Virus record (IMG/VR): IMGVR_UViG_3300032307_000622 | Coordinates: 32,001 to 96,000 of that record | Source of the DNA: a virus | Direction: 5' to 3' (one strand) | DNA: 64,000 nucleotides | Part shown: one piece after another, positions 194-18,517 of the stretch | How the letters are laid out: each line of letters begins with the position of its first letter | Numbering within the stretch: position 1 is the stretch's first letter | Notes under the pieces: model-generated | Told to the model about the DNA's origin: nothing | Seen by the model: the letters and a program-made list of their open reading frames with translations, nothing else | Databases searched by the model: none | Made by a program: the position numbers and the translations under genes

Positions 194-448
194 TTATCCA
201 AGCAAATCATCTAGAGTTTCAAAGCCTGTGTCTTCTATCTCCATGCCAGTTAGAAAAAGATCGAAAGTTTCATTAACAAACTTTTCAGCCATTGTACTTG
301 GCTCTACGATCCTGTTTGCCAGCATGTATGCTAGGGGCAGTCCGATATCGTTATACTCAATAAAGTCCTTAAACTCTTCGTCATCACGATAGTTGAGCCA
401 GAGGTCTCCCAGTATCTCTGTCTTACTAGTAAAAGAAGTTGTTTCCAA
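194..448 (-). CDS. Hypothetical acidic protein (probable TTG start at 448; ORF extends to 514)
   Basis: ORF track; purine-rich RBS before 448. Confidence 0.7.
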   Translation of the reverse strand: METTSFTSKTEILGDLWLNYRDDEEFKDFIEYNDIGLPLAYMLANRIVEPSTMAEKFVNETFDLFLTGMEIEDTGFETLDDLLG

Positions 449-632
449 AATCTTCTTCCTCTCTCTCATACCTTGCGGCATCAGCAATTTCCATAAATCT
501 TCTATAAGTGACATTTGGTGCTGACCTTGCTATGTATTCTCCAACTTGGTCAAGGTCTAGTGTCACATTGTTTACGAGTTTAGATAATTGCTCTGCCACC
601 TTTTCATTATCGCTTTTTGTTCGCTTTCCCAA
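426..632 (-). CDS. Hypothetical protein
   Basis: ORF track; AGGAG RBS; promoter at 654-682. Confidence 0.7.
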   Translation of the reverse strand: MGKRTKSDNEKVAEQLSKLVNNVTLDLDQVGEYIARSAPNVTYRRFMEIADAARYEREEEDFGNNFFY

Positions 633-653: not shown

Positions 654-682
654 ATTGTACCAAAAATGGTTGGGGGTGTCAA
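654..682 (-). promoter_or_regulatory. Promoter TTGACA-N17-TACAAT with extended -10 TG
   Basis: Read directly from sequence. Confidence 0.75.
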
Positions 683-758
683 GAGTGAAAGTAGGAAATC
701 TCTCAACACCCCCTCAGTGCCCAGCTACCCAACCAGGCACCTTACTAGGGAGCTAGGC
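672..758 (-). ncRNA. Candidate two-hairpin sRNA; 3' hairpin loop AUUUCCUACUUUCA is anti-RBS
   Basis: 14-bp stem needs tandem G-U pairs that form only on the minus strand; loop complements GAAAGUAGGAAA. Confidence 0.55.
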
Positions 759-775
759 TCAACCTAATAAGATTA

Positions 776-1123
776 TTAAACTACATCTTCCCAGTACTTG
801 GGCAGTTCATCGAAATACTGCTTTAGCCTATCTGACATCTTATCCCAATACTCTAGCTTGAAGCCGTGTAGGCCATACCATGTGTCAACCTCAGTCCTGA
901 AGTATTCATCCTGGTTTAAACCCAAGGCCACAATCTCCTCACCTGTTAATCTAATAGGGTCATTGCTGTACTCTTGAGAGTTACCCTCATTATACGTGTA
1001 GACATGAATGCACCAGCTAGCAGGGTCCCAATATGACTCCCCTCCAGCATCTAGCTCCTCTGGCATATAGATGTTTAAATCATAGTCAATAAGAGTCTTA
1101 TCTCTGTTCTTGTTCCTATACAT
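776..1123 (-). CDS. Hypothetical protein (probable start 1123; ORF extends to 1186)
   Basis: ORF track; start coupled to the upstream gene. Confidence 0.7.
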   Translation of the reverse strand: MYRNKNRDKTLIDYDLNIYMPEELDAGGESYWDPASWCIHVYTYNEGNSQEYSNDPIRLTGEEIVALGLNQDEYFRTEVDTWYGLHGFKLEYWDKMSDRLKQYFDELPKYWEDVV

Positions 1124-1508
1124 ACTTTGTAACATAGCCGTAGCCCTCACATTCTTGGCAGTCTGGGTCTCCCCATTCGTTGCCACGCTTCTCTAACATT
1201 TCTTCGTCTTCACTGTAGCACTCACATTCTGTTTCTACAGATAGGATAACTTCATAGTCTGTGTCATCTTGCCACGGTACCTCGCAAACATGATAACTAA
1301 TCCTATTAACCCAAGCAATACCTGCCACTAGCAGGCTAGACATGTCTCCGTCCACCCATGTCCAAACATAGTGTGGGTCTAGGGATTTGATGTACTCCCA
1401 TTCCTCACCATAGGTTTCAAAGTTGTAATTGTTGGTGGGCACGAGGTGATTTTGCTTTGGCTTGAATTCTTCTTCAAAAGCATCCCAACCTTGGATTTCT
1501 CTAAACAT
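1116..1508 (-). CDS. Hypothetical protein with C-terminal CxC...CxxCxGxG zinc-finger-like motif
   Basis: ORF track; CECY...CQECEGYG. Confidence 0.75.
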   Translation of the reverse strand: MFREIQGWDAFEEEFKPKQNHLVPTNNYNFETYGEEWEYIKSLDPHYVWTWVDGDMSSLLVAGIAWVNRISYHVCEVPWQDDTDYEVILSVETECECYSEDEEMLEKRGNEWGDPDCQECEGYGYVTKYV

Positions 1509-1532
1509 TTCCTACTCTACTTTCTACTGGGG

Positions 1533-1763
1533 TTATTTCCTAAAGACATTATAGCCTGACATACCGACTTTGTCAACAGCAGTTCTCTGAACATCCATCC
1601 AAGCAGTCTCACCAAAGAAATACTTAGGTCGCTGCCCTTCAATAACTAACTTATAAAAGTCATAGTAGCGATCAGACTCCATAACCTGGACGGTATTGTA
1701 GTGATAGATCCTGGTCCAAGTGGTATCTTTTACACTAGGCTTTTTATCAACATAAATCTGCAT
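1533..1763 (-). CDS. Hypothetical protein
   Basis: ORF track; TAATG coupling. Confidence 0.7.
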   Translation of the reverse strand: MQIYVDKKPSVKDTTWTRIYHYNTVQVMESDRYYDFYKLVIEGQRPKYFFGETAWMDVQRTAVDKVGMSGYNVFRK

Positions 1764-2847: not shown

Positions 2848-3234
2848 TTATTCCTCGTCTTCCTCTCCAAAGAATTGTCCAATAACAGTAACAAACTTAT
2901 CAGTCTCATCATCATTGGTAAACACAGCGTTGATGAATCTCAGGGAACAAGAATCCTCATACCAAGTAAGGACTAGGTCTTTCATCGCAGCAGGGGTATC
3001 AATAATAGTCTTATCATAACCATAGCCAATCATCTTCTCAGTCTGCTTAGCATCCATGTTTAGATAAATTTTGTGACAGCCATCAAAGGATACTGAGTCT
3101 GTTTGGTACATCAGGTCATCTAGGTTTGTTTCCTGGTTTCCCTCGCATAGATTACAGAAAGGGGTACAGTCAAAGTTGCCTTCGTGATTAGGGCATTCGA
3201 TGGTGGTATCAATCATTGTCATCATCATCTTCAT
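2848..3234 (-). CDS. Hypothetical protein with N-terminal Cys/His motif
   Basis: ORF track; CPNH...CTPFCNLC; true start probably near 3213. Confidence 0.7.
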   Translation of the reverse strand: MKMMMTMIDTTIECPNHEGNFDCTPFCNLCEGNQETNLDDLMYQTDSVSFDGCHKIYLNMDAKQTEKMIGYGYDKTIIDTPAAMKDLVLTWYEDSCSLRFINAVFTNDDETDKFVTVIGQFFGEEDEE

Positions 3235-3400
3235 CCTCCTCTAGCTCCTCAACATCAATGTCATAGACACCATCATAGGTAATGTCGTTGTCCATAGAAT
3301 CTCCCCAACTAGTCCAAGCTAGCTGTTCGGCTGCCTCTGCTGATTCTGCTTCTAGCTCACCAGCAAAGTCAATACGCATCTTCACATAGTATTTGGGCAT
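3209..3400 (-). CDS. Small acidic protein
   Basis: ORF track; AGAAAGTAG RBS. Confidence 0.7.
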   Translation of the reverse strand: MPKYYVKMRIDFAGELEAESAEAAEQLAWTSWGDSMDNDITYDGVYDIDVEELEEDEDDDDND

Positions 3401-3426
3401 TTATCTACTTTCTTTAGGGTAGGTCT

Positions 3427-3585: not shown

Positions 3586-4590
3586 TTAGTTAGCTAAAAC
3601 CAACTGAAGCAGTCTGTTCTTTTCAGCAGTTGTCACTGGGTCAAAACCAGAAGCAGCTGCTAGGATAGATTCGTTAGAACCACCACGAGCAGAGCGGTAC
3701 CAGTCTAGTCTTTCAGTTAGAGCGTTGAAAGCTCCCCACTTAGTTCCAGCGATTGTGTTGTTATACTCACCAACATAGATTGCGTTGATTAGGTCAATCT
3801 TATCGTTGTGCTTTTTGAATGAGCCCTTAGAGTCTTTTTCTGGGGCAGGGTAAGCGAGTTCAACAATCTTGTCAAACTGTGCCTTGGTGATTTCAGTTTC
3901 AATCATAGCCTTAGCCATCTCATCAAACTTATCCATGTAAGCGTTAGCCAAACCAAGAGCCTCTCTAGCTTGCTGAACTTTGCCAGAAGCTGTTGCGGTG
4001 TGTCTAATCTTGAATGACTGCTTGACACTTCCACCTCTGCCACGATTACCAAGAGCAAGGTTTAGAGTGTTAGCACATACAACACGAACTGGTGTGATAC
4101 TAGCTTGAATGGCAACAGAACCATCATGGCTAGTGTTGATTAGAAGATAAGTGTTTACCTTATCAGACACGCCGTTAGGGTCTAGGATAGTCTCACGCTC
4201 AAGAGCAAGAGAACCAAAAACCTGTCTGCCACCCTTGATAGAGCCAGCAGTCTCCCAACGACCTCCGCCATCTAGCATCAGGTCTCCGAAATCAAACAAG
4301 TCTTCATTCTGAAGCGGAACATAACGCTCACCAACTACGCCAAGAACATCATTTTGTTCTGAGTTGAATGGGTTAGTTCTAGTTACGAATGAGTAACCCT
4401 TGTCTGAAGCAAAACCATCAGGAATTGCTACATCTTCCAAGCGAACATTCCAGTTAGACAAGTGTGCCAAGTCTAGCATCTCTGCTGTGGTTACTTCCTT
4501 GTCAAAGACTGTGCCTAGCCCATGCCAAGCTGGCTGGCGAAGGGAAGCAAAAGCGGTCTGTCCGTTTACGGTCTCTAGCTCATGTGCCAT
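3586..4590 (-). CDS. DUF932/DUF945 family phage/plasmid protein
   Basis: MAHELE...AWHGLG N-terminus, Y..LQNE, WETAGS..GG, SHDGS, TPVRVVCANTL motifs. Confidence 0.9.
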   Translation of the reverse strand: MAHELETVNGQTAFASLRQPAWHGLGTVFDKEVTTAEMLDLAHLSNWNVRLEDVAIPDGFASDKGYSFVTRTNPFNSEQNDVLGVVGERYVPLQNEDLFDFGDLMLDGGGRWETAGSIKGGRQVFGSLALERETILDPNGVSDKVNTYLLINTSHDGSVAIQASITPVRVVCANTLNLALGNRGRGGSVKQSFKIRHTATASGKVQQAREALGLANAYMDKFDEMAKAMIETEITKAQFDKIVELAYPAPEKDSKGSFKKHNDKIDLINAIYVGEYNNTIAGTKWGAFNALTERLDWYRSARGGSNESILAAASGFDPVTTAEKNRLLQLVLAN

Positions 4591-4628
4591 GTTTTTCTAC
4601 TTTCTGTTAGGGGATTTCTAATAATCTA

Positions 4629-4817: not shown

Positions 4818-5264
4818 TTAGATAAGTTCCATTACAGACGAGTAAGATGAAGCAGAAACTTCCTCTTGCGTAGTCATACGAAGCACCTTGAGATTACGCT
4901 CTAGGATTTCCTTACGAGTTGAGTGTTCCCTACCAAACCACTCACGCTGGTTAGGCTTGCTTGGCTCAGTTGGCTTCTCTCCCAACCCAATTAGTTCTGG
5001 GTCTAGGACAAGTTCCAGCCTACCATTGTAGTTGGTTGAGATACGAATAACGCTATCGTAGTCATAACCAATCTTGGCAGAGTTGTTCTTGAGATACTCA
5101 GAAACAGCACTAGCAACCTTCTTCTTGTATTCCTCAGTTGCCAACTCATACTGCTTACGCTCATCTGCGTAGTTTGCTACTGCCTCGTCAATCTTCGCAA
5201 TAGACTTCTCAATGTCTGCGATTAGAACGGATACAGGGATTTTTACGGACATAGTTCTAGCCAT
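4818..5264 (-). CDS. Hypothetical coiled-coil protein
   Basis: ORF track; AGAAAGTAG RBS; own promoter. Confidence 0.8.
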   Translation of the reverse strand: MARTMSVKIPVSVLIADIEKSIAKIDEAVANYADERKQYELATEEYKKKVASAVSEYLKNNSAKIGYDYDSVIRISTNYNGRLELVLDPELIGLGEKPTEPSKPNQREWFGREHSTRKEILERNLKVLRMTTQEEVSASSYSSVMELI

Positions 5265-5296
5265 AATTTATTTCTACTTTCTTTCAGGGTAATTAC

Positions 5297-5688: not shown

Positions 5689-5718
5689 AAAACCCCCAGG
5701 ATGTCAAGTCCCAGGGGT
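5689..5718 (-). terminator. Intrinsic terminator after the 5726 gene
   Basis: CCCCUGGGA/UCCUGGGGG stem followed by UUUU. Confidence 0.6.
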
Positions 5719-5725
5719 AGTGTGT

Positions 5726-6274
5726 TTAGACTGCTTGTTCTTCTTTGAGGTACGAGTATACTCCGCACTTTGCTCTCTCACAATAGTCCTCATTAGTTAT
5801 CTCACGGACCTCTTGGAAAGTCAGAGTCAAAGTATTGTCTCCGTAGGTTGTAGCAAAGGTTTGGTTATCAAGATTTATGATGTAGATACCCTCACAGAAT
5901 AAATCATCATTCTTGAACTCTGGGTCTAGCACTAGCGGCACAGGGTCAGTAGCGTTGACAATTACCTCAAGAATACCAGCACCAGTATCTCTAGTTAGGC
6001 TAGGATAGTCCTTACTAAACCTCTCGCCATCTTCCAGACTTCCCATACCATCTTCTCTAAAGTAGTTGGCATAGATTTTCTTTAGCTCCTCATCACTTGC
6101 CTGATAGGTCAGGTGTAGGTCAAAGTTTTTCTCTAGCTTTTCGATGTTCGTTGGCTTAGACAAAAAGTTTACAATAGTGATACCCTGCCCACTTGGATAG
6201 TGGTCCCATTGACCATACTGGGCTACTACTGTCTTTCCGTTGTAAATTACCTCTGTAATTCCTCTAGTTCCCAT
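5726..6274 (-). CDS. Conserved phage hypothetical protein (MGTRG...QYGQWDHYPSGQG)
   Basis: ORF track; ATG at 6274 after GAAAGTAGG RBS. Confidence 0.8.
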   Translation of the reverse strand: MGTRGITEVIYNGKTVVAQYGQWDHYPSGQGITIVNFLSKPTNIEKLEKNFDLHLTYQASDEELKKIYANYFREDGMGSLEDGERFSKDYPSLTRDTGAGILEVIVNATDPVPLVLDPEFKNDDLFCEGIYIINLDNQTFATTYGDNTLTLTFQEVREITNEDYCERAKCGVYSYLKEEQAV

Positions 6275-6302
6275 TTTCCTACTTTCTTTTGTTGGTGAGA
6301 TT

Positions 6303-6380: not shown

Positions 6381-6463
6381 GGCCAGTTTTTCGTCATGGC
6401 CAGGACGTGGTCCACATGTTAGAAAGGATAAGAAGTGTGGACCATCTTGCCCCTATGCAAGAT
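6381..6463 (-). ncRNA. Candidate sRNA: short hairpin, anti-RBS hairpin (loop CUUCUUAUCCUUUCUAACA) and pseudoknot copy 4 (6381-6407)
   Basis: Perfect 7-bp and 9-bp stems abutting CGUC CU GGCCA U GACG AAAAAC UGGCC. Confidence 0.6.
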
Positions 6464-9895: not shown

Positions 9896-10087
9896 TTACC
9901 AAGCCCTTCTAGTTCCAAGTGCCTTAGCAACCTTGATTAGTCCGTTGATTTCGTTGATTAGTTCCCAACTAGGGTCATCAGAGATAGACATTAGCAAGTC
10001 AATCTCATCTTCTACAGCCTGTAGATTTAGGAGATTTACCTTAGCGTATCTAGTTAGGCTATCTGTTGGGGTTGTGTATCTTTTCAT
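9896..10087 (-). CDS. Hypothetical protein
   Basis: ORF track; AGAAAGGATAA RBS. Confidence 0.7.
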   Translation of the reverse strand: MKRYTTPTDSLTRYAKVNLLNLQAVEDEIDLLMSISDDPSWELINEINGLIKVAKALGTRRAW

Positions 10088-10107
10088 TGTTTATCCTTTC
10101 TATCTAG

Positions 10108-18169: not shown

Positions 18170-18517
18170 ATGGCTTTTCCAGGTACCCACAACATTTCAT
18201 ATTATCAGGGAGATACCCTAGAATTTACTATTAGGCCGAAGGCATCAGATGGCTCAGCATTTTCTCTAGATGGATATTCCAGCAAATTCTTTATTGCTGA
18301 CAGAAGGGGTCCATCTTTTACCGTTCAGCATGAGTGTACTGCAACTATATCTAATGGTGCAGTGTTTTGCACAATTTCTCCAGGTGTTGGTAGATTACTA
18401 ACTGCTGGTACTACATACTTTTATGATGTTCAAATAAGCAAATCTGCAGGGGCGGTTATTCACACTTTGCTAACTGGAACAATTTCAGTTACAGCAGACA
18501 TTACTGGAGCTGCATAG
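18170..18517 (+). CDS. Virion adaptor-like protein (BppU N-terminal-like)
   Basis: YQGDT...YDVQ...GTISVTADIT. Confidence 0.65.
   Translation: MAFPGTHNISYYQGDTLEFTIRPKASDGSAFSLDGYSSKFFIADRRGPSFTVQHECTATISNGAVFCTISPGVGRLLTAGTTYFYDVQISKSAGAVIHTLLTGTISVTADITGAA

Follow-up and report, generated by a model that had tools for sequence, protein, structure and literature searches.

The window analysed here is 64,000 nucleotides (nt) long and comes from an uncultured freshwater phage. It covers bases 32001-96000 of IMG/VR record IMGVR_UViG_3300032307_000622, which is 116,302 bp long and has direct terminal repeats. Positions are those of the window unless the genome is named; L and G numbers are our handles for loci, contigs and genomes. 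From position 1 to about 12,800 the window carries small minus-strand genes, many of which have a promoter of their own. Directly after the stop codon of one of these, which encodes 136 amino acids (aa), the minus strand at 771-672 folds into an array of three hairpins (H1 to H3). The third exposes an open loop that is the perfect complement of the GAAAGUAG-type ribosome-binding sites (RBSs) of five early genes. From the sequence, we lean slightly towards reading the element as an anti-RBS RNA in a 3' untranslated region (UTR) that would throttle early translation.

The transcription unit that ends in the array has a consensus promoter, TTGACA-17-TATAAT, at 1548-1576 (minus strand). Its first gene lies at 1116-1508 (minus strand), with the ATG at 1508-1506. 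The 136-aa gene (776-1186, minus strand) has no family match and ends in TAA at 778-776; the three hairpins are its 3' UTR. H1 (741-771), a long stem with an inner GAG/CUC stem, begins 5 nt past this stop. It is followed by H2 (717-740), a stem closing a G-rich tetraloop (GGGG), and by H3 (672-713), a 14-bp stem in which 713-700 pairs with 685-672. All three are on the minus strand. The open loop of H3 (686-699, minus strand) is the 14-nt sequence AUUUCCUACUUUCA; its core, CUACUUUC, complements the RBS core GAAAGUAG, and 12 nt of it complement GAAAGUAGGAAA.

Folding of the 121-nt region gives -53.7 kcal/mol (z = -4.70); none of 200 shuffled sequences was as stable. The H3 stem contains tandem U.G and G.U pairs, which become A.C mismatches if the plus strand is read. 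An earlier note on this DNA had proposed a two-hairpin minus-strand RNA ending at 758, in which a single hairpin of about 40 nt precedes the one with the loop. Its strand, its tandem U-G pairs confined to that strand, its H3 and its loop are borne out. The fold of the 121-nt region has three hairpins rather than two, since both H1 (771-741) and H2 (740-717) precede H3, and the array reaches 771. Pairing of the H2 'loop' with the conserved ACCC(C)UAA at the 5' ends of early leaders was also considered; it was dropped, as the H2 sequence in question is the stem closing the GGGG tetraloop. This stem carries a compensatory UA to AU change between lineages.

Like an intrinsic (Rho-independent) terminator, H3 closes a transcription unit with a GC-rich stem and has a T-rich stretch downstream. 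With 14 pairs, 8 of them G-C, the stem exceeds the minimum of 5 pairs expected of such a terminator. H3 differs in its loop, which is 14 nt long (10-16 nt in relatives with the same loop) where 3-8 nt are expected, and which is conserved in sequence. It differs also in its U run, which does not follow the stem directly: AACCA comes first and then five U, at 5-6 nt from the stem, and the offset in relatives is similar (4-6 nt). A terminator scan of the window did not list H3. Because of the 14-nt loop, the U run offset by 6 nt and the absence from the scan, H3 is not a canonical terminator.

These features bear on a plainer explanation, in which the array is a transcript-end module only: a terminator, an insulator or a 3' stabiliser against the next promoter. 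The loop would then be kept for a reason unrelated to RBSs, and its complementarity would come from pyrimidine/purine composition. The place of the array right after a stop codon suits such a module. So does a paralogous three-hairpin array that ends another unit, again after a stop codon, at genome 31800-31912 (window -200 to -88, minus strand). The H1 loop of that array is of the same type; its third hairpin, a long perfect stem closed by a small loop, is without the anti-RBS sequence. A 14-nt loop, a five-U run that begins 6 nt past the stem and the silence of the terminator scan speak against a transcript-end module, which we regard as unlikely.

Downstream of H3 lies a conserved small gene (426-632, minus strand; 68 aa) with a TTG start and an AGGAGA Shine-Dalgarno (SD) sequence; it has no family or fold match. 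It is driven by a sigma-70-type promoter, TTGACA-17-TACAAT with an extended TG, at 654-682 (minus strand). As the earlier note had seen, the TTGACA -35 of this promoter lies inside the 3' arm of H3. The small gene was found after the hairpin in every relative, and the overlap of the H3 arm with the -35 recurs in nearly all of them. Four flanking genes below position 1800 were compared with both PHROGs and Pfam, and neither returned a family. An AlphaFold2 model of the 66-aa downstream protein has three helices and a mean predicted local distance difference test score of 68.5, and Foldseek found nothing similar in the PDB at E <= 0.001; no conclusion is drawn from this.

Conservation of the array and its loop

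Relatives were collected by three kinds of search. The upstream protein, searched against viral contigs, yielded 5 loci (3 distinct), each with the three hairpins. A DNA-pattern search gave 22 loci, one of which is a chance match. The third search was blind to the loop: an alignment of the downstream small protein led to 59 loci with 54 distinct upstream regions. In these protein-found loci a hairpin with the -35 of the small-gene promoter in its 3' arm is almost universal, and the type of loop varies by lineage.

The sequence CTACTTTC is present in 18 of the 54 distinct upstream regions, which are all the loops of this type. The core CUACUUUC of this large loop is invariant in all 18 of these distinct relatives, on stems that have diverged and co-vary; in L039, L051 and L081 the same core sits on quite different stems. 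Drift in the stems thus goes with constraint on the loop. An idle loop, as a transcript-end module would have, should drift as well, yet the 8-nt core does not. The earlier note had named an unconstrained loop in homologous loci as the sign of a mere terminator; the opposite is seen.

Other lineages have other loops. Lineage B (four regions, L030-L033) has the loop UU(C/A)CCUUUCUU and L060 has CAUCCUUUC. The loop of L028 is 6 nt long, and L065 and L066 have a short loop unrelated to RBSs; in the upstream region of L040 there is no obvious hairpin. In clade C, which makes up the remaining distinct regions, the hairpin zips up to a 5-nt loop. An anti-RBS role was also considered for the clade C loop (GUGGUGGG) and rejected: the gene strand shows no enrichment of its complement, and the hairpin closes to those 5 nt. 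In the sister clade (L045, L052-L057, L061-L079, L083-L086; G006-G010) the stem has 15-16 bp and a GUGGU loop and is followed by ACAC and a U run, which looks more terminator-like. The sequence GTGGTGGG recurs in this clade up to four times per genome on the gene strand.

A covariance model was built from 17 sequences and recovered the element in the protein-found loci. The alignment of 22 distinct rows, which was fitted to this model, has 97.0% of its cells paired, and 18 of 31 pairs have changed on both sides. None of 500 shuffles reaches the observed pairing, and slid controls are 45-52% paired. An independent analysis with MAFFT and RNAalifold gives compensatory changes in 11 of the 31 pairs. 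Among the 22 distinct relatives, 5 of the 7 outer pairs of H1 show compensatory changes. H3 has 99.3% of its cells paired, and its 13 pairs divide into 8 changed on both sides and 5 with wobble changes only. In the 5' arm of H3, opposite the invariant TTGACA, only C to U and A to G changes occur (8-10 of 22 rows); pairing is thus preserved solely in the minus-strand RNA.

Metagenome contigs were scanned with the stem pattern, whatever the loop. This gave at least 102 distinct segments, mostly unrelated palindromes. Among the matches listed, at least 12 distinct segments are H3-like with CUACUU in the loop, and at least 9 of them have the full 8-nt core; L152 also matches on the reverse strand, which makes at least 13 H3-like entries. 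The set is too mixed to weigh either way. One unrelated family of long perfect palindromes comes from several metagenomes (L125, L132, L142, L126, L147, L186 and others); the first ten bases of this family equal the start of the H3 stem and are followed by CCCCCCGGT.

Ribosome-binding sites that match the loop

The longest match to the loop in the window is the RBS GAAAGUAGGAAA at 6275-6286 (minus strand), which abuts the ATG of the gene starting at 6274. It is complementary to the loop in 12 of 12 nt, with a duplex energy of -17.1 kcal/mol. The 12-nt loop complement, GAAAGTAGGAAA, occurs exactly once in the window besides the loop, and this is at that site. The second match is in the start region of the first gene of the array's own unit (1507-1524, minus strand; -14.4 kcal/mol). 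Here GAAAGUAG (8 of 8, from 1517) is followed by AGUAGGAAAU (10 of 10, 1507-1516), which runs into the AUG: AGTAGGAA occupies 1509-1516, and the 10-nt match extends into the ATG at 1508-1506. The RBS core GAAAGUAG further matches in 8 of 8 nt at 5274-5281 (gene 4818-5264), 4597-4604 (DUF932 gene, 3586-4590) and 3405-3412 (gene 3209-3400), all on the minus strand. The earlier note had listed all of these matches, and each was found again.

On both strands of the window the 8-nt core GAAAGTAG has 7 matches against 2.23 expected, a number reached by 2 of 100 shuffles. Five of its six minus-strand copies sit 4-9 nt before start codons (1517, 3405, 4597, 5274 and 6279). Of the 167 start regions in the genome, 7 contain a loop complement of at least 8 nt; among random 36-nt windows, 72 of 20,000 do. 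For 2000 shuffled loops of matched composition the mean is 2.24 start regions, which is the share that composition alone would give a transcript-end module. A relaxed count in the window, with up to two mismatches to the loop complement, is not significant (12 against 9.14 expected), and neither is the count of AGTAGGAA alone (4 against 2.66). Taken alone, the complementarity counts of the window are only moderately unusual.

Longer pieces of 22 related genomes were taken, and start regions were called upstream of the hairpin. Among the 13 pieces with a CUACUUUC loop, 44 of 303 start regions contain GAAAGTAG; the 9 pieces without this loop have it in 1 of 253. Counted without a gene caller, such sites in the 13 pieces number 48. 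The sequence stands a few bases before start codons in every relative with the same loop, including starts inside operons without a nearby promoter. Because the spacing to the start codon is kept even where coding sequence rather than a promoter lies upstream, GAAAGTAG is an RBS. Its copies show a strong bias to the gene strand. In 4 of the 6 relatives tallied, the only copy on the opposite strand is the loop itself; the other two have 2-3 more. Other early genes have AGAAAGGA-type sites. The 19.7-kb contig of L028, whose loop is short, has no GAAAGTAG site.

Lineage B has RBSs of the AAGAAAGG and AAGAAAGA types, which match its own loop. Two natural dialects can therefore be told apart: the loop CCUACUUUC occurs with a GUAG site and the loop CCUUUCUU with a GG site. 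Orthologues (the DUF932 gene and genes of 148, 182 and 63 aa) switch their type of site between genomes, and they carry GAAAGTAG only where the genome has the matching loop. In a tree of DUF932, lineage B is nested in clade A as the sister of L020 (100/100 support). This nesting requires at least two changes of loop type, with the RBS dialect changing along. A loop that changes to another RBS type is not what a transcript-end module with an RBS-unrelated loop would lead one to expect.

The two-strand identity of loop and site allows for regulation at the DNA level. Stoperators are asymmetric DNA operators with a 13-14 bp site bound by an immunity repressor. GAAAGTAG could be a stoperator-like operator for a phage DNA-binding protein that lies downstream of early promoters and, reversed, just upstream of the -35 of the promoter at 682; the inverted repeat would be the operator of the downstream small protein. 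As double-stranded DNA, the loop site is identical to the RBS sites, the loop is 2-5 bp from the -35, and the promoter of the conserved 66-aa gene accompanies the hairpin in every case. The strong strand bias of GAAAGTAG also fits an asymmetric operator used in one orientation. However, the SD-like spacing to start codons is kept even far from any promoter, and only the 8-nt core is shared, with variable flanks, rather than a whole site of 13-14 bp. The wobble-only and compensatory changes in the three hairpins fit an RNA better. The hairpins of a second anti-RBS family (hp2, see below) adjoin no promoter, the distance from hp2 to the next promoter box downstream being about 85 nt. The 66-aa protein, in a weak AlphaFold2 model, gave no DNA-binding fold, and it gave no family match. 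A DNA operator is accordingly the least probable of the explanations weighed here, and we give it very little credence.

A second hairpin family and the 16S tail

The second family, hp2, is represented in the window at 6408-6444 (minus strand). It has a 9-bp stem and a 19-nt loop that holds UUAUCCUUUCU and complements the AGAAAGGAUAA RBSs of genes further upstream. The matches at 10102, 10275, 9502, 9275, 8964, 9816 and 8570 are 12, 11, 11, 11, 9, 9 and 8 nt long, respectively, and the gene starting at 10087 has a GAAAGGAUAA leader. Loops of the hp2 family are 14-19 nt long and contain UUAUCCUUUCU, which is conserved on very different stems. Relatives of hp2 lie 5-7 kb upstream of H3 in L008-L013, L020, G001, G002 and G016-G019.

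The early regions of the 22 pieces were examined for hairpins with large loops. CUUUC is the commonest 5-mer in these loops. The gene strand has 259 such hairpins, 37 of them with CUUUC in the loop; the other strand has 253, of which 1 has it. Hairpins with CUUUC in the loop have a perfect complement of at least 8 nt in a mean of 3.6 start regions of their own genome, against 0.09 for the other 222 hairpins. This difference is a further point against a transcript-end module, for which the loop sequence would be immaterial to RBSs. Extra CUUUC hairpins stand on varied stems in A and B genomes and are not found in clade C.

The sites are laid out in order. Relative to hp2, 33 AGAAAGGAWA sites are upstream and 4 downstream; for GAAAGTAG, 33 sites are downstream and 13 upstream, and most lie between hp2 and H3. 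In the window no GAAAGTAG site lies beyond H3. From this layout, each hairpin follows the gene group that it mirrors.

The early region has further features. Between about 2800 and 10200 (minus strand), early promoters have an AAATGTC box upstream of the -10, which replaces the -35. AAATGTC occurs in 23 minus-strand and 4 plus-strand copies in the genome, and the box is common to related phages. At 5692-5718 (minus strand) a terminator-like hairpin with TTGACAT words in its loop is followed by a T run; it adjoins a promoter, TTGATA-17-TACAAT, at 5613-5585. In the related phages G001 (around 23,000) and G002 (around 10,200, in oriented pieces), sequences like tRNA 3' ends, with T-arm-like GGTTCGAATCC words, lie just upstream of genes. 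A tRNA and transfer-messenger RNA scan of the window itself found none, and megablast of the sequence against phages gave no matches.

The host is probably an actinobacterium of low GC content. That it is an actinobacterium is likely from a WhiB-family gene, from actinophage relatives and from the occurrence of the phage DNA in freshwater metagenomes. The WhiB gene (genome 14684-14857, plus strand; window about -17300) scores 48.9 bits, above the family cut-off, and among 14 control genomes it matched only Corynebacterium. The nearest cultured relatives are phages of Streptomyces, Mycobacterium, Arthrobacter and related phages, at about 55% amino-acid identity. Relatives of the WhiB protein (60-69% identity) are encoded on contigs L106-L111, which are binned in metagenome-assembled genomes (MAGs) labelled Methylococcus, Polynucleobacter, Chitinophagaceae, Flavobacterium, Acidimicrobiaceae and Aquiluna. 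As these are six different taxa, the contigs are probably mis-binned phage contigs, and no specific host is drawn from them.

A 16S gene was not found in the two MAGs examined. The 16S tail was instead read from four family-level relatives (Microbacteriaceae) of one MAG, and it may not be that of the host. The four 16S genes end in ...GGATCACCTCCTTT followed by CT, so AGAAAGGAGG is the extended SD sequence for this tail. The H3 loop (CCU-A-CUUUC) and the last ten bases of this tail (CCU-C-CUUUC) are one letter apart. The proximal early genes carry GAAAG-U-AGG, the compensating one-letter variant of the extended SD sequence GAAAG-G-AGG. The loops of hp2 share UCCUUUCU with the tail.

Nearest-neighbour duplex energies, computed with the tail of the four Microbacteriaceae genomes, separate the two kinds of site. 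GUAG-type sites favour the loop (-17.1, -14.4 and about -11 kcal/mol) over the 16S tail (-9.4, -6.9 and -6.5 kcal/mol). Canonical SD sites favour the tail (-10.0 and -15.9 kcal/mol) over the loop (-5.5 and -7.9 kcal/mol).

Not all genes of the phage appear to depend on such sites. Many plus-strand genes look leaderless: those starting at 18170, 24837, 25477, 12978 and 71713, for example, have a TATAAT-like box 6-8 nt before the ATG and are without an SD sequence. Late structural genes have strong AGGAGG-type sites. Together with the sites of the early genes, these indicate three modes of initiation in the phage.

The likeness of the loops to the 16S tail raises another explanation. Rather than being antisense to mRNAs, the pyrimidine-rich loop could serve as a landing pad, or as a decoy, for some protein or part of the ribosome that recognises the 16S 3' tail or single strands rich in U and C. 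Candidates are ribosomal protein S1, a 30S subunit on standby for the downstream gene, and a factor or nuclease acting on the anti-SD tail. The UCCUUUCU shared by the hp2 loops, and the single letter that separates the H3 loop from the tail, would be natural in a decoy; the many leaderless-looking genes make tampering with SD-dependent initiation conceivable. Two observations are left unexplained, namely that the compensating RBS letter is present only in genomes with the variant loop and that each hairpin follows the gene group it mirrors. The flanking genes, searched in PHROGs and Pfam, also offer no candidate protein. We consider a landing pad or decoy improbable.

Proposed role in early translation and comparison with known systems

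The reading that we prefer is that the array acts on early translation through its loop. The hairpin RNA would be made as the 3' end of the early unit transcribed from the consensus promoter at 1576-1548, and it would have to accumulate. The open H3 loop may then pair with the start regions of GUAG-tagged early genes. Its partners could be several early mRNAs in trans, the 5' UTR of the transcript that carries it in cis, or both of these. In pairing, the loop would out-compete the 30S subunit, so that translation of this gene group is throttled or shut off; a repressive effect is the expected sign of such pairing. hp2 may act likewise on the distal early genes with AGAAAGGAUAA sites. With a hairpin downstream of each mirrored group, the result would be an RNA-only, position-ordered feedback on early translation.

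A fuller version of this scheme is more tentative, and we think it somewhat less likely than not to hold as a whole. Here the phage would use private, orthogonal SD/anti-SD pairs as an early-translation switch made of RNA only and ordered by position. The RBS dialects would be AGAAAGGAUAA first and GAAAG-U-AGG next. As transcription or genome entry proceeds, stable hairpins with loops that mimic the 16S tail, each with the matching letter, would out-compete the ribosomes at the group before them. The switch would spare leaderless genes as well as late genes with canonical SD sites.

A number of observations weigh against an anti-RBS role. A pyrimidine-rich loop easily matches purine-rich RBSs, and 4% of the shuffled loops reach 7 start-region matches; the excess within the genome is modest. 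The lineage association amounts to about two evolutionary events, seen in a single-gene tree of mosaic phages. Co-variation between loop flanks and site flanks beyond the 8-nt core is not significant (1.33 nt for own against 1.08 nt for cross comparisons; permutation p = 0.135). Some relatives keep the loop with few sites: G018 has the site in 1 of 23 start regions, and L013 has it in 0 of 18 by gene caller and once when counted without a caller. G005, a 9.5-kb fragment, has the loop and no GAAAGTAG in the available 6 kb upstream, which makes it a partial counter-example. The hairpin is co-transcribed with its proposed targets, and a simple late shut-off would need the hairpin RNA to outlast the mRNAs. 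The sequencing runs listed as containing the phage comprise 8 DNA runs and 0 RNA runs. Finally, the large clade C and L028 keep both the hairpin and the -35 overlap with loops of 5-6 nt. Since these small-loop versions exist, and the paralogous array is without such a loop, the hairpin has a basal role independent of the anti-RBS loop, as a 3'-end or promoter-overlap module. The anti-RBS reading of the earlier note is thus upheld in part: the constraint on the loop and the tracking of loop type by RBS type favour it, while the flank co-variation and the small-loop hairpins of the sister clade do not.

Several bacterial RNAs work through comparable loops. The 6C small RNA (sRNA) of Mycobacterium tuberculosis is described in the passages cited as binding multiple mRNAs through pyrimidine-rich hairpin loops, without a chaperone (PMC6486639). 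Unlike the phage element, it is host-encoded and has C-rich loops in a different architecture; on that description the two are not homologous.

The Cuckoo/CcsR (alpha-r14) sRNAs of Alphaproteobacteria are closer in form. As far as the cited passages describe them, they consist of 2-4 adjacent hairpins with highly variable stems and fixed, pyrimidine-rich, anti-SD-like CCUCCUCCC loops, and the arrays are processed from a 3' UTR (PMC4615179, PMC8034643). The phage array shares with this description its adjacent hairpins, its variable stems and a fixed pyrimidine-rich loop motif, which is also found on other hairpins of the same genomes and which complements the RBSs of candidate target mRNAs. 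It differs in bearing the motif only on the third of three hairpins. In addition, the motif is private to the phage, a one-letter variant that fits the RBSs of the phage's early genes, and the element lies in the genome of a phage with a probable actinobacterial host. A search of the window with Rfam gave 0 families at the gathering score, including Cuckoo/CcsR and c4; at E up to 10, the region 600-900 gave two irrelevant weak matches only.

A cis arrangement is known from the icaR mRNA of Staphylococcus aureus. According to the parts of the source drawn on here, an anti-SD motif in its 3' UTR pairs with its own SD region and blocks the initiation complex (PMC3868564). Pairing of this kind would also create a substrate for RNase III. 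Similarly, the unit that ends in H3 starts with a leader (1524-1507) bearing the 8/8 and 10/10 complements, followed by two genes and the array, and all of these would be on a single transcript. Unlike in icaR as described there, the target tag is common to five or more genes spread over several transcription units; action in trans is therefore equally possible.

Phages also have antisense RNAs of their own. Through their loops, c4 (P1/P7) and sar (P22) pair with a phage mRNA around its RBS and so block its translation, and c4 acts on the transcript of its own operon, as summarised in the cited passages (PMC12197685). The element described here would likewise be a phage-encoded loop complementary to phage RBSs. 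The phage antisense RNAs covered in those passages control single genes, and c4 and sar control a single antirepressor gene in lysogeny decisions (PMC12197685). The present element instead mirrors the tag of a whole class of early genes, in what is apparently a lytic early region. In the literature searched, supplementary files excluded, no phage hairpin is described that mirrors a private RBS tag of an early-gene class.

The temporal shut-off of phage early genes is classically ascribed to proteins, such as RegA and RegB of T4. If the anti-RBS reading holds, a whole early-gene class would be tagged by a private RBS variant that is matched by a hairpin mimicking, with one compensating letter, the anti-SD tail of the ribosome. 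It would then become testable how phages of Actinobacteria, which are poor in chaperones and rich in leaderless genes, schedule translation. The signature of a loop matched to the genome's own RBSs could also serve for annotating regulatory RNAs in uncultured phages. The phage pairs would be a natural counterpart of the engineered orthogonal SD/anti-SD pairs.

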